DNA from: a virus
Taxonomy: Duplodnaviria > Heunggongvirae > Uroviricota > Caudoviricetes
IMG/VR virus record: IMGVR_UViG_3300045988_101336
Coordinates: 1 to 21,568 of that record
DNA: 21,568 bases
Strand: one strand, 5' to 3'
Shown here: positions 1,440-21,551 of the stretch, piece by piece
How positions within the stretch are numbered: position 1 is the stretch's first letter
How the letters are laid out: each line of letters opens with the position of its first letter
Notes under the pieces: model-generated
The model's input: the letters and a program-made list of their open reading frames with translations, nothing else
Told to the model about the DNA's origin: nothing
Database searches by the model: none
Made by a program: the position numbers and the translations under genes

Positions 1440-2474
1440 TCAGCCGTTGTCAGTGTCCAGTGAGTAGTTTTTAAAGCGGATGACCTCCTGACCGAGCCAG
1501 CCGTTTATTTCCCGAATCCTGTCCTGTAGCGGGATAAGCTCATTGCGGACAAAGACCTTTGCCACTTTCTCAATATCGCCCAGCGACCCGACGTTCTCCG
1601 GCTTGCCGCCCATCAACTGAAAGGGGATGCGGTGCGCGTCCAGCAGGTCTGCGGCACTGGCTTTTTTGATATTAAAAAAATCGTCCTTCGTTGCCACTTC
1701 ACTGAGCGGGATAATTTTAATGCCGTCAGCTTTCCCCTGCGGGGCATAGAGAAACAGATTTTTAAAGTTGTTGCGGCCTTTCGACTTAACCATGTTTTCG
1801 CGAAGCATTTCGATATCGTTGCGATCCTGCACGGCATCGGTGACGTACATGATGTATCCGGCATGTGCGCCGTTTTCGTAATACTTGCGGCGGAACAGCG
1901 TGGCCGACTCATTCAGCCAGGCAGAGTTAAGGGCGCTGAGATATTCCGGCAGGCCGTACAGCTCCTGATTGATATCCGGCTCCAGCAGGTGAAACACGGA
2001 GCCGGGCGCGAAAGGTGTCGGCTCGTTGAAGGACGGCACCCACCAGTAAACATCCTCCTCCACGCCACGGCGGGTATATTTTGCCGGTGAGGTTTCCAGT
2101 CTGATGACCTTACCGGTGGTGCTGTAACGCTTTTCCAGAAACGCATTACCGAACACCAGAAAATCCAGCGCAAAGCGGCTGAAATCCTGCTGGGAAAGCC
2201 ACGGATGCGGGATAAATGTCGAGGCCAGAATATTACGTTTGACGTAAATCGGTGAGCTGTGATGCACGGCAGCACGCAGGCTTTTTGCCAGACCGGTAAA
2301 GCTGATTGGTGGCTCATACCATCTGCCGTTACTGATGCATTCGACGTAATCCAGAATGTCACGGCGGTCGAGTACCGGCACCGGCTCACCAAAGGTGAAT
2401 GCCTCCATTTTCGGGGCGCTGGCGGTCATTTTTTTTGCCGCAGGTTGCGGTGTTTTCCCTTTTTTCTTGCTCAT
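1440..2474 (-). CDS. Q: Portal vertex protein (P2 gpQ-like)
   Basis: 344-aa ORF starting MSKKKGKTPQPAAKK...; recognised as P2 gpQ by sequence and length. Its ATG overlaps the stop of P (ATGA). Confidence 0.92.
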   Translation of the reverse strand: MSKKKGKTPQPAAKKMTASAPKMEAFTFGEPVPVLDRRDILDYVECISNGRWYEPPISFTGLAKSLRAAVHHSSPIYVKRNILASTFIPHPWLSQQDFSRFALDFLVFGNAFLEKRYSTTGKVIRLETSPAKYTRRGVEEDVYWWVPSFNEPTPFAPGSVFHLLEPDINQELYGLPEYLSALNSAWLNESATLFRRKYYENGAHAGYIMYVTDAVQDRNDIEMLRENMVKSKGRNNFKNLFLYAPQGKADGIKIIPLSEVATKDDFFNIKKASAADLLDAHRIPFQLMGGKPENVGSLGDIEKVAKVFVRNELIPLQDRIREINGWLGQEVIRFKNYSLDTDNG

Positions 2475-9745: not shown

Positions 9746-10175
9746 TGCCGTCACGGTGCTGAAAACTAACCCCGATATGCTGCGGATATTCGTGGATAAC
9801 GGGAGTATTGCCTCCACACTGGCGACGTCGCTGTCGTTCGAAAAGCGTTACACGCTCAATGTGATTGTGACCGACTTTACCGGTGATTTTGACCTGCTCA
9901 TCGTGCCGGTGCTGGCGTGGCTGCGGGAAAATCAGCCCGACATCATGACCACCGACGAAGGCCAGAAAAAGGGCTTCACGTTTTATGCAGACATCAACAA
10001 TGACAGCAGCTTTGATATCAGCATCAGCCTGATGCTGACCGAGCGCACGCTGGTCAGTGAGGTGGACGGCGCGCTGCATGTGAAGAATATCCCTGAACCT
10101 CCGCCGCCGGAGCCGGTTACCCGCCCGATGGAGCTGTATATCAATGGCGAACTGGTGAGCAAGTGGGATGAATGA
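9708..10175 (+). CDS. R: Tail completion protein R (P2 gpR-like)
   Basis: 155-aa ORF MLKPDSLRRALTDAVTVLKTNPDMLRIFVDNGSIAST... Confidence 0.88.
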   Translation: MLKPDSLRRALTDAVTVLKTNPDMLRIFVDNGSIASTLATSLSFEKRYTLNVIVTDFTGDFDLLIVPVLAWLRENQPDIMTTDEGQKKGFTFYADINNDSSFDISISLMLTERTLVSEVDGALHVKNIPEPPPPEPVTRPMELYINGELVSKWDE

Positions 10176-10617
10176 GTTTAAGCGTTTTGAAGACCGGCTG
10201 ACCGGACTGATTGAGTCGCTGTCACCGTCAGGGCGTCGGCGACTGAGTGCCGAACTGGCGAAACGTCTGCGTCAGAGTCAGCAGCGTCGGGTGATGGCAC
10301 AGAAAGCCCCGGACGGCACACCCTACGCACCACGCCAGCAGCAGAGCGCCAGAAAAAAGACCGGTCGCGTTAAACGAAAAATGTTTGCGAAACTTATCAC
10401 CAGTCGTTTTTTGCATATCCGCGCCAGCCCGGAACAGGCATCAATGGAGTTTTACGGCGGAAAGTCACCGAAAATCGCCAGTGTGCATCAGTTCGGTCTG
10501 TCGGAAGAAAACCGGAAAGACGGTAAGAAAATTGATTATCCGGCGCGTCCTCTGCTCGGCTTTACCGGTGAGGATGTGCAGATGATTGAAGGGATTATCT
10601 CTAACCATCTAGAATAA
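10168..10617 (+). CDS. S: Tail completion protein S (P2 gpS-like)
   Basis: 149-aa ORF MNEFKRFEDRLTGLIESLSPSGRRRLSAELAKRLRQSQQRR...; overlaps the R stop. Confidence 0.88.
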   Translation: MNEFKRFEDRLTGLIESLSPSGRRRLSAELAKRLRQSQQRRVMAQKAPDGTPYAPRQQQSARKKTGRVKRKMFAKLITSRFLHIRASPEQASMEFYGGKSPKIASVHQFGLSEENRKDGKKIDYPARPLLGFTGEDVQMIEGIISNHLE

Positions 10618-10666
10618 AAACATAGTTAATCATCATTGGTGAAATCATTAGGGGGGCAATCGCTTG

Positions 10667-10697
10667 TTGACTTGAAAATAGCGAAAAAAAATATTAT
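10667..10697 (+). promoter_or_regulatory. Candidate sigma70-type promoter for the cargo gene
   Basis: TTGACT at 10667-10672 and TATTAT at 10692-10697 in the AT-rich leader, followed by a weak SD (AAGGG) before the ATG at 10733. The 19-bp spacer is suboptimal, so this is a guess. Confidence 0.3.
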
Positions 10698-10732
10698 AGA
10701 TCATCCTTTTACACTAATCTTAAAGGGAATAT

Positions 10733-12259
10733 ATGCGCGAACCAGTGTATTTAGAAGATGTCTTTAAACTTTCGGGTATCCCGACAATTACTTTTGTTGA
10801 ACCTAACGAGTATAAACACCTCTATGTGTCGATAAGAACAGCGGGAAGAGGGGTAATTATTGAAGGGCCATCAGGTATAGGGAAGACGACTTGCGTAAGA
10901 CAGGTTATTGAAAAGTTAAAATTCGAGACCAGTAGTCGGATAATTAAAGAGTTTAAAGTATTGTCTGGAAGGAAAAAGGAAGATAAAGCCCAGATTGAAA
11001 ATATAATAACAACGAGTGGTTTCGGTGGGGTGATTATTGATGATTTTCATAAGTTAGATGATGAGTTGAAGCATAAAATATCTGACTTGCTGAAAAATTT
11101 AGCGGATGAACAACCCTTAGATTCTAAGTTGATTATTATAGGTATAAATAAAACAGGCAAATCACTGATTGATTTATCACCGGATTTACTAAATCGAATC
11201 TCCATTGTTAAATTTGAGTCCAATCCGGAATATAAGGTCAGGGAGTTGCTAGAAAAAGGTGAGAATGCGCTTAATTTCAAATTAAATGTAAAAGAAGATA
11301 TTGTAAAGGACTCGGATGGGGCATTTCATCTGGCGCAAATGTTGGCTTATAATGCTTGTTTACAGGCTGATATCACAGAAGAGTTAGAATCTCCTCGGGA
11401 AACAAATATTAGCTATGAATCACTTAAAGAAACAGTGATTCAGGATCTTAGCTATAGATTCAATGATATAGTCGTTCGCTTTGTGAAAGGCCAGCGGGTT
11501 AAAAAGGGTAGTAGAGCTCCATATCTCCACGTTTTATATTGGTTATCTAAAGAAGATGAGCGTTCTTTAAATTTGACAAGTTATTTAATTAACAATCCTA
11601 ATCATCGTAATAGCGTTGGGCAAATTCTGACGCGAGGCCATTTAAAAACGCATTATGAGAGCAATCCTGATTTTTCGGATGTTATTCATTATAATGATGA
11701 AACTACGGAGATTTCAATCGAAGATCCCAAGTTTTATTATTATATAAAGAATTTGTTATGGAGCAAGCTTGCGGAGAAGATAGGTTTCACATCATTTGAG
11801 TTTAAGTCGAAATATGACTTTGCTTTATCATTTGCTGGAGCTAATAGAAATCATGCGGAATATTTAAATCAAAAGCTGATTGAGAATGAGTTATCTGTTT
11901 TTTATGATTTCAATGAGCAGGCCAGAATACTTTCTGAAGATGTAGAACAATATCTTGCTCCAATTTATAGGAGTGAGTCTGTTTTTGTAATTCCGTTTTT
12001 GAGTAGGGATTATCCAACTAGAATATGGTGCAAATTTGAAGGTGATACATTTAGGGATAGATTTGGTGATGGGTGTGTTATTCCTTTAAGATATAGTGAT
12101 GCACCTGTTGGCATGTTTGATACTGCCAATGGCATTGGAGGTTTTACCATAAATCCTAGTGAGGATATATACGCACAGCTAGATACATTTGCAAACTTGC
12201 TTGTTGAAAAAATATGTGAAAAAAGAATGCTCTTAAATGGAAAAGAGAATGAAGAATAA
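10733..12259 (+). CDS. P-loop NTPase (Walker A/B) fused to a C-terminal TIR-like domain; candidate single-gene anti-phage defence (abortive infection) protein in the S-V variable locus
   Basis: 508-aa ORF, strongly AT-rich, between backbone genes S and V. Walker A GPSGIGKTT (K51, codon 10883-10885); Walker B-like GGVIIDDFH (D103/D104). C-terminal ~150 aa (from about residue 358, roughly nt 11804 onward) reads YDFALSFAGANRNHAEYLNQKLIENELSVFYDF...SVFVIPFLSRDYPTRIWCKFEGDTF, which matches the pattern of bacterial TIR domains, with a candidate catalytic Glu at E436. Domain calls are by eye, without HMM confirmation. Confidence 0.7.
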   Translation: MREPVYLEDVFKLSGIPTITFVEPNEYKHLYVSIRTAGRGVIIEGPSGIGKTTCVRQVIEKLKFETSSRIIKEFKVLSGRKKEDKAQIENIITTSGFGGVIIDDFHKLDDELKHKISDLLKNLADEQPLDSKLIIIGINKTGKSLIDLSPDLLNRISIVKFESNPEYKVRELLEKGENALNFKLNVKEDIVKDSDGAFHLAQMLAYNACLQADITEELESPRETNISYESLKETVIQDLSYRFNDIVVRFVKGQRVKKGSRAPYLHVLYWLSKEDERSLNLTSYLINNPNHRNSVGQILTRGHLKTHYESNPDFSDVIHYNDETTEISIEDPKFYYYIKNLLWSKLAEKIGFTSFEFKSKYDFALSFAGANRNHAEYLNQKLIENELSVFYDFNEQARILSEDVEQYLAPIYRSESVFVIPFLSRDYPTRIWCKFEGDTFRDRFGDGCVIPLRYSDAPVGMFDTANGIGGFTINPSEDIYAQLDTFANLLVEKICEKRMLLNGKENEE

Positions 12260-12276
12260 CACACAAAATATGCTGT

Positions 12277-12294
12277 TGTGTCAGCTATAGTACA
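12277..12294 (+). promoter_or_regulatory. Candidate P2 late-promoter activator (Ogr-type) site, TGT-N12-ACA, upstream of V
   Basis: Exact TGT (12277-12279) - 12 nt - ACA (12292-12294), the dyad described for P2 late promoters, about 50-65 bp upstream of the V start. It is closer to the ATG than the usual -55 position would predict, hence low confidence. Confidence 0.3.
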
Positions 12295-12341
12295 TAATGG
12301 GAGGTTTGCCGTGCTGCTTTCTTGGCGGCATCCTTCCCGTT

Positions 12342-12977
12342 ATGAACACTCTCGCAAATATTCAGGAACTCGCGCGCGCACTGCGCAACATGATTCGTAC
12401 CGGCCTTGTCGTCGAAACCAACCTTAAAGCCGGTCGCTGCCGTGTGCAGACCGGTGGCATGTGCACCGACTGGCTTCAGTGGCTGACCCATCGCGCCGGG
12501 CGTTCGCGCACATGGTGGGCACCTTCCGTGGGGGAACAGGTGCTGATTCTGGCCGTGGGCGGTGAACTCGACACGGCGTTCGTTCTGCCGGGGATTTATT
12601 CCGGCGATAACCGCGCGCCGTCTGCGTCGGCGGATGCCCTGCATATCCGTTTCCCTGACGGGGCGGTGATTGAGTATGAACCCGAAACCAGTGCACTCAC
12701 GGTAAGCGGAATTAAAACGGCCAGCGTGACGGCTTCTGATTCTGTTACTGCCACGGTACCGGTGGTCACGGTGAAAGCGTCAACCCGTGTCACCCTGGAC
12801 ACACCGGAAGTGGTCTGCACTAACAAACTGACTACCGGCACGCTGGAAGTGCAGAAGGGCGGGACGATGCGCGGCAACATTGAACACACCGGCGGTGAAC
12901 TCTCATCAAACGGTAAGGTACTGCATACCCACAAACACCCCGGCGACAGCGGCGGCACAACCGGGAGTCCTTTATGA
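12342..12977 (+). CDS. V: Baseplate spike protein (P2 gpV-like)
   Basis: ATG at 12342 gives MNTLANIQELARALRNMIRTGLVVETNLKAGRCRVQTGGMCTDWLQW... (211 aa). The track ORF 12297..12977 has an upstream extension. Confidence 0.9.
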   Translation: MNTLANIQELARALRNMIRTGLVVETNLKAGRCRVQTGGMCTDWLQWLTHRAGRSRTWWAPSVGEQVLILAVGGELDTAFVLPGIYSGDNRAPSASADALHIRFPDGAVIEYEPETSALTVSGIKTASVTASDSVTATVPVVTVKASTRVTLDTPEVVCTNKLTTGTLEVQKGGTMRGNIEHTGGELSSNGKVLHTHKHPGDSGGTTGSPL

Positions 12978-16034: not shown

Positions 16035-16475
16035 ATGAATTACATATATTCCGCGACTACAAACTCTTTCTATCCGCTGGAGATGAAAGAGGATTACACT
16101 CAAGCTGACTCATGGCCAGATGATGCTGTTGAAGTTGATGAGCAAGCGTATATTGAGTTTTCCGGATTACCGCCGAAAGGAAAAATCCGTATCGCTGGAG
16201 AAAATGGTTTTCCTGCATGGTCTGAAATTCCACCACCAACACATGAGGAACAGATTGCTGCAGCCGAACTGGAAAAGCAGCAACTGATTAATCAGGCCAA
16301 CGATTATATGAACAGTAAACAATGGCCTGGTAAAGCGGCTATTGGTCGTCTGAAAGGTGAGGAACTGGCGCAATATAATTTGTGGCTGGATTATCTGGAC
16401 GCACTGGAGCTGGTCGATACTTCCGGTGCGCCAGATATTGAATGGCCTACGCCTCCGGCAGTTCAGGCCAGATGA
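16035..16475 (+). CDS. G: Tail fibre assembly chaperone (Tfa / P2 gpG-like) for the currently expressed fibre tip
   Basis: 146-aa ORF directly downstream of H, with the typical Tfa C-terminus (...LWLDYLDALELVDTSGAPDIEWPTPPAVQ). Confidence 0.8.
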   Translation: MNYIYSATTNSFYPLEMKEDYTQADSWPDDAVEVDEQAYIEFSGLPPKGKIRIAGENGFPAWSEIPPPTHEEQIAAAELEKQQLINQANDYMNSKQWPGKAAIGRLKGEELAQYNLWLDYLDALELVDTSGAPDIEWPTPPAVQAR

Positions 16476-17049
16476 CATCCGGCGCGGTGCTGGTATCTGT
16501 TGCCGTCACCGCGTCAATGTAATCCAGCACAGCGTTAAGGCGGGTTGTTTCTGCCTGCGTCAGTTTACGTCCGGCCTGCAATTTCAGCTGAATCAGACTG
16601 ATGGAGGCCATTGCAGTATCAATCAGTGACTGACGCTGTGCTTCTGCCGCGTCTACTGCGGCGCTATGCTGTGCCTCAGTATCGGTCACCCATTTCTCAC
16701 CATCCCATTTATCGTATGGCGTTAATGGGGCGATAGTGGTTGTATTTTCGGGGTAATCACCCGGTGCTGTGATTTCTTTGGCATCTCCCGTTTCGGTGTT
16801 ATAGACGATTTCACCGCGATGGTCTGGCACATATTCCCATGAGTTTAAATCCATCGAACGGCAGATAGCATAACCAGCCTTATGTGTACCAGGAGCATCT
16901 AAACAGGAATATGCAGGAATACCGACACCAATGGCAAGATATTCATTTGAAGTGGAAATATATTCCCGAGTTTCACCATCATAGTTATAGACGGTAATAT
17001 TCCCCGCCTTCGTGGCAATAAGCTCGCTATTTAATACGGCGTTATCCAT
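16447..17049 (-). CDS. Alternative tail fibre assembly chaperone (Tfa') belonging to the silent fibre cassette
   Basis: 200-aa minus-strand ORF with a Tfa-like C-terminus (...RLNAVLDYIDAVTATDTSTAPDVIWPELPEA). Convergent with tfa, overlapping it tail-to-tail by 29 bp (16447-16475). Confidence 0.75.
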   Translation of the reverse strand: MDNAVLNSELIATKAGNITVYNYDGETREYISTSNEYLAIGVGIPAYSCLDAPGTHKAGYAICRSMDLNSWEYVPDHRGEIVYNTETGDAKEITAPGDYPENTTTIAPLTPYDKWDGEKWVTDTEAQHSAAVDAAEAQRQSLIDTAMASISLIQLKLQAGRKLTQAETTRLNAVLDYIDAVTATDTSTAPDVIWPELPEA

Positions 17050-17570
17050 TATGCAGCCCTCACGATAAAGTTAAATGCAATATTTCGTGGACGGGTTTCA
17101 CTCCCGCCAGTATTACCGATACTCCCTCGTGAATGAAGTGTCGGTGACGGGATTAGGCTCCCTCCTGTATTTGTGGCATCAAGTCCTCGCCCTTGTGTGT
17201 ATGTTTTTTTGAAAATCGTAGCCAGTTCCCATTCATCTTTCGTGTCGTAACCATCATTGGCAACAACAATATGACGGTGTTTTTCCAGCATTCCTGCCTG
17301 AATACTCAATAAAACACGTCCTGCATCAATACCGCGCCCGTCATCCCAGCCACGAATAAACTCACCGCGTAAATCAGGTAATTTATTTGTCGGATAAGCC
17401 TTTGCCAGTTCCGGGTATTCTTCAGCAGAAAAAGCCGCACCGTTGCATTTCAGCCAGCCTGTTGGCGGTGTGGCTGAAGGCCACGGAACAGGCACACCAA
17501 CAGGTAATGCAGAGCCTTCTCCTAAACCAACGTTTATGAAAATGCAGAGATAACGGGCAACTGGCATCAT
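17049..17570 (-). CDS. Alternative tail fibre C-terminal (receptor-binding) cassette Sv', promoterless in this orientation; functional part about 17052-17528
   Basis: Minus-strand ORF whose first 20 codons (...INVGLGEGS) include the recombination site and parallel H residues ...[10 protein letters not shown]. Contains a tail-collar-like motif LPDLRGEFIRGWDDGRGIDAGR. The ATG at 17570 is probably incidental; expression would follow inversion and fusion to H. Confidence 0.7.
   Translation of the reverse strand: MMPVARYLCIFINVGLGEGSALPVGVPVPWPSATPPTGWLKCNGAAFSAEEYPELAKAYPTNKLPDLRGEFIRGWDDGRGIDAGRVLLSIQAGMLEKHRHIVVANDGYDTKDEWELATIFKKTYTQGRGLDATNTGGSLIPSPTLHSRGSIGNTGGSETRPRNIAFNFIVRAA
17517..17542. 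repeat. Right invertase recombination site (inverted copy)
   Basis: Plus strand TTCTCCTAAACC AA CGTTTATGAAAA; its reverse complement TTTTCATAAACG TT GGTTTAGGAGAA matches the left site in 11 of 12 positions of the right half-site and 8 of 12 of the left, with an identical central dinucleotide. Confidence 0.65.
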
Positions 17571-17591
17571 CTCCGGTTTTTATTCAGGGGG

Positions 17592-18191
17592 ATGCTCATG
17601 CTTATTGGCTATGTACGCGTGTCAACAAATGACCAGAACACGGAATTGCAGCGTAACGCGCTGGAGTGCGCAGGATGCGAGCGGATTTTTGAGGATAAAA
17701 TCAGCGGCACGAAGTCCGACCGACCGGGACTGAAAAAACTGCTCAGAACATTATCAGCAGGTGACACTCTGGTAGTCTGGAAGCTGGACAGGCTGGGGCG
17801 TAGTATGCGGCATCTGGTCATTCTGGTTGAGGAACTGCGCGAACGCGGCGTTAATTTTCGCAGTCTGACGGATGCTATTGATACCAGCACGCCGATGGGG
17901 CGTTTTTTCTTTCATGTGATGGGTGCCCTGGCTGAAATGGAGCGAGAACTCATTGTCGAGCGGACACGCGCCGGACTGGAAGCGGCCAGAGCCAAAGGTC
18001 GTATTGGTGGCAGACGTCCGAAACTCACCGCGAGTGAGTGGGAGCAGGTCGGACGGTTGCTGGCTGCGGGGGAATCTCGTCAACGTGTGGCGCTGATTTT
18101 TGATATTGGCCTGTCCACGCTCTATAAAAAATTCCCCTCATCAGCGGCAAAGAATAAATTGTGTCATCCCTTAGCCAACCGGGACAAATAG
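17592..18191 (+). CDS. Serine-recombinase DNA invertase (Hin/Gin/Cin/Pin family)
   Basis: 199-aa ORF M(LM)LIGYVRVSTNDQNTELQRNALECAGCERIFEDKISGTKSDRPGLKKLL...GDTLVVWKLDRLGRSMRHL...FRSLTDAIDTSTPMGRFFFHVMGALAEMERELIVERT...GGRRPKLT...LSTLYKK. Near-identical in pattern to Gin/Hin, including the catalytic serine motif (YVRVSTxDQ) and C-terminal HTH. The true start may be the ATG at 17598. Confidence 0.92.
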   Translation: MLMLIGYVRVSTNDQNTELQRNALECAGCERIFEDKISGTKSDRPGLKKLLRTLSAGDTLVVWKLDRLGRSMRHLVILVEELRERGVNFRSLTDAIDTSTPMGRFFFHVMGALAEMERELIVERTRAGLEAARAKGRIGGRRPKLTASEWEQVGRLLAAGESRQRVALIFDIGLSTLYKKFPSSAAKNKLCHPLANRDK

Positions 18192-20304: not shown

Positions 20305-20456
20305 CGTTTCCGAAAAATCTCTCGGTCGATGACCTGATGGCGGATGTGGCAGTGATATTTCACTGGCCGCCATCAGAACTGTATCCCATGAGCCTGACCG
20401 AACTCATCACATGGCGCGAAAAGGCGCTCCGGCGAAGCGGAAACACGAATGAGTAA
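20029..20456 (+). CDS. E+E': E+E' fusion made by programmed -1 ribosomal frameshift at the slippery heptamer TTTTTTG (20277-20283)
   Basis: The -1 frame from 20283 is open to TAA at 20454-20456 and encodes VAELGAVTFPKNLSVDDLMADVAVIFHWPPSELYPMSLTELITWREKALRRSGNTNE. There is no start codon of its own, so the ORF track misses it. Same arrangement as P2 E/E' and lambda G/GT. Confidence 0.7.
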
Positions 20457-21551
20457 CAATGTAAAATTACAGGTATTGCTCAGGGCTGTTGACCAGGCAT
20501 CCCGCCCGTTTAAATCCATCCGCACAGCGAGCAAGTCGCTGTCGGGGGATATCCGGGAAACACAAAAATCACTGCGCGAGCTGAACGGTCAGGCATCCCG
20601 TATTGAGGGATTCCGCAAGACCAGTGCACAGCTCGCCGTGACTGGTCATGCACTTGAAAAGGCTCGGCAGGAAGCAGAAGCCCTTGCCACACAGTTTAAA
20701 AACACCGAACGTCCGACCCGTGCTCAGGCGAAAGTGCTGGAATCCGCAAAGCGTGCGGCGGAGGACTTACAGGCGAAATATAACCGCCTGACGGATTCCG
20801 TTAAACGCCAGCAGCGGGAACTGGCCGCTGTGGGAATTAATACCCGCAATCTTGCACATGATGAGCAGGGACTGAAAAACCGTATCAGTGAAACCACCGC
20901 ACAGCTTAACCGGCAGCGCGACGCGCTGGCGCGTGTCAGTGCGCAACAGGCAAAACTTAACGCAGTCAAACAGCGTTATCAGGCCGGAAAGGAACTGGCC
21001 GGAAATATGGCCTCAGTAGGCGCTGCCGGTGTGGGGATTGCGGCGGCGGGAACGATGGCCGGTGTTAAGCTGCTGATGCCCGGTTATGAGTTTGCGCAGA
21101 AAAACTCAGAATTGCAGGCCGTGCTCGGTGTGGCAAAAGATTCTGCCGAAATGGCCGCGCTACGCAAACAGGCGCGCCAGCTCGGCGACAATACCGCCGC
21201 CTCGGCAGATGATGCAGCCGGTGCGCAGATTATTATTGCGAAAGCCGGTGGGGATGTTGATGCCATTCAGGCGGCAACGCCGGTCACGCTGAACATGGCG
21301 CTGGCGAACCGCCGCACGATGGAAGAAAACGCCGCCCTGCTGATGGGGATGAAATCCGCCTTTCAGCTTTCAAACGATAAGGTCGCTCATATCGGGGATG
21401 TTCTCTCCATGACGATGAACAAAACCGCCGCCGATTTTGACGGCATGAGCGATGCGCTGACCTATGCCGCACCTGTGGCAAAAAATGCCGGTGTCAGCAT
21501 TGAAGAAACCGCCGCAATGGTCGGGGCGCTGCATGATGCAAAAATTACAGG
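20449..21551 (+). CDS. T: Tail tape measure protein (P2 gpT-like), 5' partial (first ~367 codons; gene continues past the window)
   Basis: ATG at 20449, overlapping the E' stop, gives MSNNVKLQVLLRAVDQASRPFKSIRTASKSLSGDIRETQKSLRELNGQASRIEGFRKTSAQLAV... and is open to the end of genuine sequence. The ORF track lacks it because there is no stop in the window. Confidence 0.85.

Follow-up and report, generated by a model that had tools for sequence, protein, structure and literature searches.

Closest described systems

ATPase-gated TIR and SIR2 suicide effectors are an established class, and a new immune principle is therefore unlikely to come from the gene that we describe here. It is a fusion of an AAA+ ATPase, a winged-helix domain and a TIR domain, a complete open reading frame (10733..12259, + strand, 508 aa plus stop) in the window, by which we mean the whole 21,568-nt stretch of DNA that was analyzed. 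Rather probably, in our view, it encodes a self-contained, prophage-borne anti-phage abortive-infection module, and it is credible as a defence gene that is a compact variant on established logic.

bSEFIR (Millman et al. 2022, bioRxiv 10.1101/2022.05.11.491447) is a validated single-gene system of Bacillus sp. NIO-1130 that protects against phi29. It shares with the window protein the single-gene layout and the fusion of a TIR-superfamily domain to an NTPase, but its SEFIR domain is N-terminal, whereas our protein has a C-terminal TIR and matches neither SEFIR nor the bSEFIR model. The connection between the two is a relative, P0181, that matches the bSEFIR model over its SEFIR domain plus ~215 ATPase residues (aa 7-394, E 4e-64), and whose ATPase-winged-helix module shares 31% identity with the 508-aa protein across an alignment of 350 aa (E 3e-55). 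Homology to bSEFIR is that of the ATPase-winged-helix module only, via P0181.

The Avs/AVAST systems including Avs5, bNACHT, Rst_TIR-NLR and TIR-II (Wang et al. 2024) have N-terminal effectors on proteins of 1,000-2,000 aa, whereas the window protein has ~500 aa and a C-terminal TIR. It also lacks the TPR/LRR/WD40 sensor of the Avs/bNACHT/Rst_TIR-NLR class, and its ATPase, which has an SRC-like arginine, has more in common with Orc1/Cdc6 and archaeal AAA+ proteins; the PADLOC Avs, NLR and Rst_TIR-NLR models do not match it. Identity with Rst_TIR-NLR (Rousset 2022) is out, given this lack of a PADLOC match and given that Rst_TIR-NLR is encoded by P4 and that its listed TIR-like domain is PF08937 (PMC9122126, PMC10952713). 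Wang et al. 2024 put 32 of 64 E. coli TIR clusters through a screen and report one new system with an AAA domain, which their text implies to consist of two genes (PMC11350192). The first-pass annotation took TIR first to be the known order of ATPase and TIR. The C-terminal TIR of the window protein does depart from that order, but TIR-first relatives, which are distinct proteins, exist on the same ATPase-winged-helix module.

Two further comparisons concern the TIR domain. NADases of the AbTIR/PdTIR type match in the TIR domain alone and do not have an AAA+ switch, and the TIR of the window family is divergent. Thoeris ThsB has the same catalytic-glutamate chemistry as the candidate TIR here. 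In Thoeris, however, ThsB is a TIR sensor paired with the ThsA effector, whereas the TIR here is part of one protein with an ATPase and, we presume, is itself the effector and not a signal generator, with no partner and no match to ThsB or ThsA in PADLOC even at E<=10.

Beyond weak P-loop matches, PADLOC gives a single match to the 508-aa protein, PDC-S59 (E 1.5e-19, aa 53-337 on profile positions 110-399 of 428). PDC-S59 is a computational candidate of PADLOC, predicted from genomic association, and the match spans the ATPase core, lid and winged helix only, the TIR lying outside the profile. Among 60 larger relatives of the ATPase-winged-helix module, 59 match the same model. The PD-T4, PD-T7, PD-lambda, Avs, bNACHT, Thoeris and CBASS/Pycsar effector families were set aside, having no PADLOC match. 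PHROG 6841, a group of unknown function, is matched by the protein as a whole with an E-value of 3e-87. The description of this system as undescribed holds in part: full-text literature searches found no publication on the ~500-aa family, on this gene or on PDC-S59. It does not hold for the ATPase and winged helix, which match PDC-S59, for the whole protein, which has a PHROG, or for the module, which is homologous to that of proteins that match the validated bSEFIR model.

Domain architecture

RefSeq WP_047644722.1, labeled 'AAA family ATPase', is the same product in 99.8%-identical E. coli prophages. The AlphaFold model of the 508-aa protein (pLDDT 88.6, pTM 0.82) is all globular and of cytoplasmic type, and AAA+, lid, winged helix, TIR and one helix explain the whole of it. 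A Pfam search of the protein detected no secretion or membrane domain families. As first proposed, neither that search nor the predicted structure has a repeat-type sensor (TPR/LRR/WD40).

Profile and structure tools agree with the originally proposed order of a P-loop NTPase, a helical middle and a C-terminal TIR. The middle is indeed helical, and it resolves further into the lid and the winged helix of an Orc1/Cdc6-like ATPase, which makes the protein NLR/STAND-like in its logic. Residues 1-165 (10733..11227, + strand) form a conserved N-terminal strand and helix followed by the AAA+ alpha/beta core. Residues 166-255 (11228..11497, + strand) are the helical lid by secondary structure and per-domain conservation, with the highest variability among the globular parts (mean column entropy 1.63). 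Residues 256-350 (11498..11782, + strand) are winged-helix-like, helices plus a beta-hairpin, comparable to the domain found in Cdc6/Orc1, archaeal ATPases and STAND NTPases. The TIR domain comes next (aa 351-476; 11783..12160, + strand), and the protein ends in a long, poorly conserved helix (aa 477-508; 12161..12256, + strand; entropy 2.6) that may contribute to oligomerization. Conservation reveals no hypervariable sensor region, only the lid and this C-terminal helix being moderately more variable.

The ATPase has Walker A at G45-T52, with K51, and Walker B at D103/D104; G45, K51, T52, D103 and D104 are invariant in 61 homologs, and Pfam AAA exceeds its cutoff. N139 (in G-I-N) and R155 (in L-N-R-I) are also invariant and stand where sensor-1 and box VII are expected. 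We infer from sequence that N139 acts as a sensor-1 residue and that R155 is the candidate arginine finger; the L-N-R-I around it resembles the clamp-loader version of the SRC motif. The alpha/beta core, helical lid and winged helix are all present, as in AAA+ proteins of the Orc1/Cdc6, clamp-loader and archaeal-ATPase type, and a BFVD structure search returned clamp-loader-type AAA+ matches only. No STAND-type profile in Pfam rises above threshold: NACHT reaches E 0.0019 over the P-loop only, and nSTAND3 and nSTAND_NTPase5, whose cutoffs are 27-34 bits, reach just 18-19.

For the TIR domain, the 508-aa protein alone falls 0.4 bits under the gathering score of 28 for Pfam TIR_2 (27.6 bits, E 4.4e-6). 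TIR models match all 61 homologs at E<=1e-4, and the family profile matches AbTIR-type chains with E-values from 4e-7 to 2e-5. The C-terminal domain has the flavodoxin-like TIR fold, with 'FALSFAG' (363-369) at its first strand, and the initial reading of the C-terminus as a TIR domain holds. In the motif W432-x-K434-F435-E436, none of the four named residues varies across the 61 sequences, and E436, the candidate catalytic glutamate, lines up with the glutamate of W-T-x-Y-E in 7uxr, 8g83 and 7uwg. K51, D103/D104 and E436 had been put forward as the catalytic residues, and each of them is among these invariant positions. By profile, fold and conserved glutamate, we predict a TIR of the NADase-competent type.

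A mobile family without a conserved partner

The family is large and spans many phyla (10 or more); it comprises at least 1,957 clusters and no fewer than 307 species, all of these numbers being lower bounds. Its members are consistently about 500 aa long. The carriers are largely environmental and include Acidobacteriota, Planctomycetota, Cyanobacteria, Nitrosomonas and Paenibacillus, as well as archaeal MAGs. The ATPase-winged-helix module extends further, to a superfamily of at least 1,000 representative clusters in which it recurs with swapped effectors (TIR, SEFIR, SIR2, kinase and phosphoesterase), and to which TIR-module-TIR proteins also belong. Within it, the TIR of the ~500-aa family forms a BLAST cluster of its own, apart from the TIR_2-type domains that its relatives carry. 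Effector swapping on the module, horizontal mobility and single-gene autonomy are seen here, as are the architecture, the invariance of the catalytic residues and the cargo-slot location described below.

The family has no conserved neighbor gene: of 80 loci, no more than 3 share any one neighbor family, which bears out the single-gene nature claimed for the system. Known defence genes often adjoin family members, an association that is qualitative, and many homologs have housekeeping neighbors.

These neighborhoods bear on a Thoeris-like reading, which we find unlikely, in which the TIR makes a signaling nucleotide (a cADPR isomer, His-ADPR or similar) for an effector whose gene lies at another place in the host or the prophage. 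Thoeris ThsB and the type IV Thoeris TIR proteins do make signal nucleotides. The profile and fold matches of our C-terminus are to TIR domains in general, which suits such a role, and the neighbors of homologs include ThsB-like TIR genes (3 of 150 ORFs) and matches to a caspase model (2 of 136 ORFs). However, no partner is conserved across the 80 loci, the slot in the window holds a lone gene, and ThsB and ThsA are absent from its PADLOC matches. Moreover, a mobile single-gene cassette that needed a receptor in trans would not keep working as it moved through 10 or more phyla.

A cargo slot between two late operons

The gene sits between gpS and gpV of a P2-like E. coli prophage, where P2 carries orf30. 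On the left is gpS (tail completion/virion morphogenesis; 10168..10617, + strand), with DNA 97% identical to P2 up to 10599, and on the right is gpV, the baseplate spike (12342..12977, + strand). The slot, which holds the fusion gene alone, is one of three P2-like moron regions, and its cargo is AT-rich, non-essential and different among P2-like phages (PMC6823313). P2 orf30 is unrelated to the gene here: 261 aa, on the opposite strand, and with no PADLOC match. By slot, by deviant composition (cargo GC 0.35 vs. 0.56) and by variable content, the fusion gene is a P2-like moron, that is, accessory cargo. The moron-type location given by the first-pass annotation was right, but its placement inside a late operon was not, as one late operon ends before the gene and another follows it.

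The gene is carried by only 2 of 5,426 complete E. coli genomes and found in none of 50,697 sequenced phage records at the DNA or protein level. P2-like prophages of four genera retain it between gpS and gpV; among 80 sampled family loci, only an Erwinia locus falls in this slot.

An AT-rich leader (10618..10732, + strand) runs from the gpS stop to the ATG. It includes an AAGGGA Shine-Dalgarno-like element and a weak sigma-70-like site, TTGACT-17 nt-AATATT (10667-10695, + strand). In a promoter/terminator scan neither the promoter count nor any other signal exceeded the shuffled expectation, so these signals are weak evidence that the fusion gene would have its own promoter, and the scan detected no terminator-like site downstream of gpS. 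Beyond the gene is a TGT-N12-ACA dyad, TGTGTCAGCTATAGTACA (12277..12294, + strand), whose spacing of ~56 nt to the gpV start matches P2's annotated activator site. Motif and spacing probably identify it as the Ogr-type site through which the late pV promoter is activated, and with it the cargo slot ends on the right. Read-through from the late O operon could express the fusion gene during P2's own lytic growth, a point against the defence reading that calls for explanation.

This late-gene setting with no terminator detected after gpS, the retention of the slot in four genera, and the resemblance of the ATPase to replication initiators and clamp loaders all suit a prophage role outside defence. 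The protein might then be a DNA-binding Orc1/Cdc6-like factor that serves P2 in replication, lysogeny or morphogenesis, or it might take part in the conflict of helper P2 with satellite P4 as a weapon or a regulator, with the TIR as an interaction module. We consider this quite improbable. In P2 itself the slot holds an unrelated, non-essential gene, most family members lie outside prophages, and the module is shuffled with effectors typical of conflict systems. The invariant catalytic glutamate, in addition, indicates an enzymatic rather than a scaffolding TIR.

Chemistry and proposed mode of action

Granting defence, the TIR might act on nucleic acids or other substrates and not on bulk NAD+, for instance as a 2',3'-cNMP synthetase, a nuclease or an enzyme that ADP-ribosylates a target. 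Plant TIR domains show such activity. The winged-helix/Orc1-like module could bind DNA, and the separate BLAST cluster and borderline Pfam score leave room for a different chemistry. But the closest profile matches are to the NAD+-consuming AbTIR-type TIRs, with the catalytic glutamate aligned, and we regard other chemistry as highly doubtful. As for a TcpC/Btp-like virulence factor that interferes with TLR/MyD88 signaling in an animal host, one carrier strain does come from human stool and mobile islands do encode TIR proteins of pathogens, TcpC and BtpA among them, but with a family mostly of environmental bacteria and archaeal MAGs, no secretion or membrane domain, an all-globular model, and an obligatory AAA+ fusion without parallel among Tcp proteins, it hardly deserves consideration.

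For the abortive-infection module that we favor, we infer a defence phenotype, NADase chemistry, ATP gating, oligomerization and a trigger that would fit together as follows. The Orc1/Cdc6-like AAA+ with its lid and winged helix would work as a switch that depends on nucleotide, with the TIR at the C-terminus as its effector. As long as the lysogen is at rest, it would contain the protein as an inactive monomer or a small oligomer. On infection by a competing phage, some cue would be read by the lid/winged-helix region, to which we assign it because there is no repeat sensor; with no recognizable sensor domain, this trigger step is speculative. The cue would lead to ATP-dependent oligomerization through inter-subunit ATP sites, built from Walker A/B of one subunit and R155 of its neighbor. 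Oligomerization would unite the TIR domains into composite active sites that hydrolyze NAD+, with E436 catalytic. Short of NAD+, the cell would then stop growing or die while the invader's cycle is still incomplete, and the clonal lysogens, and hence the P2-like prophage, would be protected. Against this reading stand the Pfam TIR_2 score just under its cutoff, the absence from phage records and the rarity in E. coli genomes, the housekeeping neighbors of many homologs and the weak evidence for a promoter of the gene's own. Some bacterial TIR proteins, moreover, produce signaling nucleotides and do not deplete NAD+.

If functional, this would be one of the smallest NLR-like immune proteins, fitting a switch ATPase together with its TIR effector into 508 residues, and an attractive model for the ATP-driven licensing of a TIR NADase and for what a sensor-less module detects. 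The little explored gpS-gpV (orf30) slot of P2-like phages would join the prophage defence hotspots. The gene would also offer an experimental entry to a large, cross-phylum superfamily, related to PDC-S59 and bSEFIR, in which most members are unstudied.

A more tentative proposal, and one that we think may well be wrong, is that the Orc1/Cdc6-like module of ~350 aa is the sensor itself. It would read phage DNA ends, replication intermediates, modified DNA or a shift in nucleotide pools, polymerize on or around what it reads, and fire the TIR. This repeat-free, initiator-like mode of sensing would, with equal reserve, be superfamily-wide, including bSEFIR, the TIR-module-TIR proteins and the kinase, SIR2 and phosphoesterase fusions. 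If true, the minimal 508-aa member would explain how infection is sensed across the superfamily.

Domain architecture and conserved residues

The first-pass annotation had proposed an NTPase-TIR fusion encoded by one gene, and both its coordinates and its motifs were right when the translation was re-read: the ORF runs from 10733 to 12259 on the plus strand, starts with ATG, and encodes 508 aa, with GPSGIGKT from residue 45 (K51), IIDDFH from 101 (D103/D104), and WCKFE from 432 (E436). The AT-rich island it described is borne out as well, with GC of 0.33-0.38 across 10501-12000 versus 0.56-0.60 on both sides (0.35 for the gene itself and 0.56 for its flanks).

Pfam AAA matches aa 42-157 at 29.6 bits (cutoff 21.2). 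What had been read as a helical middle region is not a plain helical stretch; it is an AAA+ lid and a winged-helix domain. As for the TIR domain, Pfam TIR_2 scores 27.6 bits at aa 363-456, just under the cutoff of 28; all 61 sequences in our alignment of the ~500-aa family match TIR_2 at E<=1e-4, and the family profile matches solved AbTIR-type TIR NADase chains (7uxr, 8g83, and 7uwg; E 4e-7 to 2e-5). Aligned to these chains, E436 lands on the glutamate of their W-T-x-Y-E motif, the residue that carries out catalysis in TIR NADases.

Among the residues invariant across the 61 sequences are the entire P-loop, D103/D104, G137-I138-N139 (at the position expected for sensor 1), D151-L152-x-x-R155, and, in the TIR domain, the 'SF-G' of the first strand and W432/K434/F435/E436. 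We take R155 as a candidate arginine finger because of the SRC/box VII-like 'NRI' directly before strand 5. Conservation is highest in the TIR domain and the AAA core, and lowest in the lid and the last helix. Per-domain conservation reveals no hypervariable or repeat region in the protein, in agreement with the earlier remark that it has no long repeat sensor.

The gpS-gpV interval of a P2-like prophage

The window is a P2-like prophage of E. coli; the same segment occurs at 99.6-99.8% identity in 2 of 5,426 complete E. coli genomes, where the RefSeq product name is 'AAA family ATPase'. P2 late genes flank the cargo in canonical order, Q, P, O, N, M, L, X, holin, endolysin, lysA/B/C, R, and S before it, and V, W, J, I, H, G and so on after it. 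DNA homology to P2 (97%) extends as far as 10599 and restarts (96%) at 12342, the gpV start. Here P2 itself has the terminator of the O operon; orf30, which is non-essential and runs on the opposite strand; and the site at which the pV promoter binds its activator. At 12277-12294 the window has a TGT-N12-ACA dyad, and the ~56 nt that separate it from the gpV start match the spacing of the P2 activator site. The gene thus lies between two late operons, and not inside one as had been claimed. The S-V interval is one of three moron regions in P2-like phages (PMC6823313). The reading of the gene as a defence moron holds up, defence being its predicted function.

A promoter/terminator scan of the window found no terminator-like site after gpS, and sites such as the weak sigma-70-like TTGACT-17-AATATT upstream of the gene are not commoner than in shuffled sequence, so its expression signals are inferential.

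Homologs 65-67% identical from Serratia, Rahnella, and Erwinia occupy the same slot in P2-like prophages. Just 5′ of the gpV start, at 12308-12337, there is a hairpin-like GC-rich element followed by GGCATCCTTC (GCCGTGCTGCTTTCTTGGCGGCATCCTTCC). The same arrangement precedes gpV in the cargo-bearing Serratia and Rahnella prophages (compared loci L002, 9560-9605, and L005, 9605-9640, both approximate) and is absent from P2; it may be a conserved V-operon leader element of this prophage subgroup. On Cupriavidus nantongensis chromosome 2 (L086), a family member at 10001-11455 lies ~9 kb upstream of adjacent gpS and gpV (20371-21451), which places it in or beside a P2-like prophage, outside the S-V slot.

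Distribution and gene neighbours

A word-indexed search gives at least 1,957 family clusters at 90% identity, and relatives turn up in at least 307 of 185,579 species when one genome of each is scanned for motifs. Save for the 99%-identical E. coli cluster, most of the best 120 listed matches are full-length proteins of 490-515 aa with 47-84% identity. The best 80 relatives, of constant length and 43-65% identity to the window protein, come from Proteobacteria, Bacteroidota, Acidobacteriota, Planctomycetota, Firmicutes, Actinobacteria, Cyanobacteria, Chlorobi, Elusimicrobia, Deinococcota, Verrucomicrobia, and two archaeal MAGs. Full-length archaeal members (~46% identity) are found in a Methanotrichaceae MAG (L056, 10001-11452) and a Halobacteriota MAG (L062, 5022-6467), by either inter-domain transfer or binning contamination.

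Beyond the gpS-gpV slot, members are chromosomal, and nine plasmids also carry one. In 5 of 6 other loci examined, gene GC is 0.34-0.36 versus 0.48-0.59 in the flanks. The wide taxonomic spread, the plasmid carriage, and the low GC point to repeated horizontal transfer under strong purifying selection. The family was not found in INPHARED sequenced phage genomes at the DNA or protein level; PHROG 6841, annotated as of unknown function, matches the window protein.

Across 80 loci, no family of neighbouring genes is seen at more than 3, so we regard the family as an autonomous single-gene unit. When the two nearest ORFs on each side of family members (286 ORFs) were scanned with PADLOC, strong matches included type I RM methylases and specificity subunits, the retron-type genes RT-Protease, RT-TIR, and RT-Toprim, mad2, PD-T4-6, ThsB, Hhe, AbiD, a caspase model, PDC-S37, and PDC-S73. 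PemK and ParE toxin genes adjoin members at other loci, and many neighbours are housekeeping genes. The association with defence genes is a qualitative one.

A shuffled ATPase module

When aa 1-350 alone (AAA+ core, lid, and winged helix) were used to query 1.84 billion representative proteins, 1,005 matched at E<=1e-3 and 205 at E<=1e-30, many with the module at varying positions inside proteins of 560-1,973 aa. The PADLOC candidate PDC-S59 matches 59 out of 60 of these larger proteins, and TIR_2 is present in 50, often at both ends. Other domains are calcineurin-like phosphoesterase (13), protein kinase (PD-T4-6-like; 3), and SIR2 (2), together with EAD1/EAD5 adaptors, WD40, DUF4062, HD-CE, and SEFIR. 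A constant NTPase module with swapped effectors is typical of conflict systems.

The PADLOC bSEFIR model matches 8 of the 60. In one, P0181 (SEFIR-module-TIR), it covers aa 7-394, that is, SEFIR and ~215 ATPase residues (E 4e-64), and its module is 31% identical to the window protein across a 350-residue alignment (E 3e-55). By sequence homology, then, the family is tied to bSEFIR, an experimentally validated single-gene defence of Bacillus sp. NIO-1130 against phi29, lost on mutation of the SEFIR interface (bioRxiv 10.1101/2022.05.11.491447).

In many of the larger relatives the module is flanked by a TIR-type domain at both sides, or the protein pairs TIR with a calcineurin-like phosphoesterase, kinase, SIR2, or SEFIR domain (P0174, P0198, P0212, P0227, P0257, P0203, and P0181). 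The literature searched contained no description of a double TIR around a central NTPase.

Proposed mechanism and alternatives

The best supported reading is that the protein is probably an abortive-infection switch, in which ATP-driven assembly of the module fires NAD+ hydrolysis by the TIR domain. An infection cue would induce ATP-dependent oligomerisation of the Orc1/Cdc6-like module, clustering the TIR domains into composite active sites; these would hydrolyse NAD+ via E436, and the cell would arrest or die. What the analysis establishes is the domain architecture, the invariance of the residues, the autonomy and mobility of the gene, and the shuffling of its module. TIR NADases require self-association, and NTPase-driven assembly switches on TIR or SIR2 effectors in plant TNL resistosomes, SARM1, and Avs5 filaments; by analogy, we infer the same activation here.

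Because the protein has no repeat sensor, only the lid/winged-helix region is a candidate for sensing the cue. The module's resemblance to Orc1/Cdc6 makes a nucleic-acid cue conceivable, and we advance it tentatively, as a doubtful proposal. Transcription of the late O operon may run on into the gene, so one would expect the cue to be absent from P2-like phages themselves. Such an absence would fit with P4-encoded systems mostly sparing P2-like phages (PMC9122126).

Thoeris-like signalling, where the TIR product acts on an effector encoded in trans, is improbable given that there is no conserved partner gene. We put a little lower a non-defence prophage function or a part in P2-P4 conflict, and lower again a TIR domain performing another chemistry. 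A host-directed Tcp-like virulence factor is very improbable, contradicted by the environmental and archaeal distribution.

Relation to known systems

The protein resembles STAND/NLR-type single-protein systems in its proposed working logic, yet it has no NACHT, NB-ARC, or nSTAND match above threshold and no sensor repeats, and its effector is C-terminal. Thoeris is ruled out by the lack of a ThsA/ThsB match and of a conserved partner gene, and Rst_TIR-NLR by its unmatched model. The window protein has its module in common with the PADLOC candidate PDC-S59 and with bSEFIR-type proteins, but it carries no SEFIR domain, and the bSEFIR model gives no match to it.

Full-text searches turned up no paper on this gene or the ~500-aa family; 'undescribed' nevertheless needs qualifying, as the protein had been partly flagged computationally. 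An E. coli TIR screen, which tested 32 of 64 TIR clusters, mentions one system with an AAA domain (PMC11350192). We would describe the protein as a compact, sensor-less ATPase-TIR of reversed domain order and candidate function. The first-pass observation is confirmed, and its interpretation partly supported. To a specialist it is a good candidate, though not a surprising one. What makes it valuable is how small it is, how large a superfamily it stands for, and how little the gpS-gpV slot has been explored.

Other cargo in the prophage

At the AT-rich start of the window (GC 0.27-0.33), positions 1-921 on the minus strand encode another ATPase, of which the window edge leaves the N-terminal 307 aa. 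It adjoins the portal gene Q (1440-2474, minus strand), in the classical cos-proximal P2 defence hotspot, and matches the PADLOC candidate PDC-S06 (E 5.6e-92). A related E. coli prophage (L001) has a full-length 735-aa version (69% DNA identity; PDC-S06 at E 1.7e-254) with a PrrC-like C-terminal part. With the S-V slot gene, the prophage thus has two candidate defence cargos.

Between the tail-fibre and sheath genes (the Z/fun slot; 16447-18191) lie two minus-strand ORFs, 16447-17049 and 17049-17570, followed by a plus-strand ORF of 199 aa, 17592-18191. The annotations of their L001 equivalents, namely tail fibre assembly, gp53-like, and 'recombinase family protein', suggest an invertase-controlled switchable tail-fibre segment.
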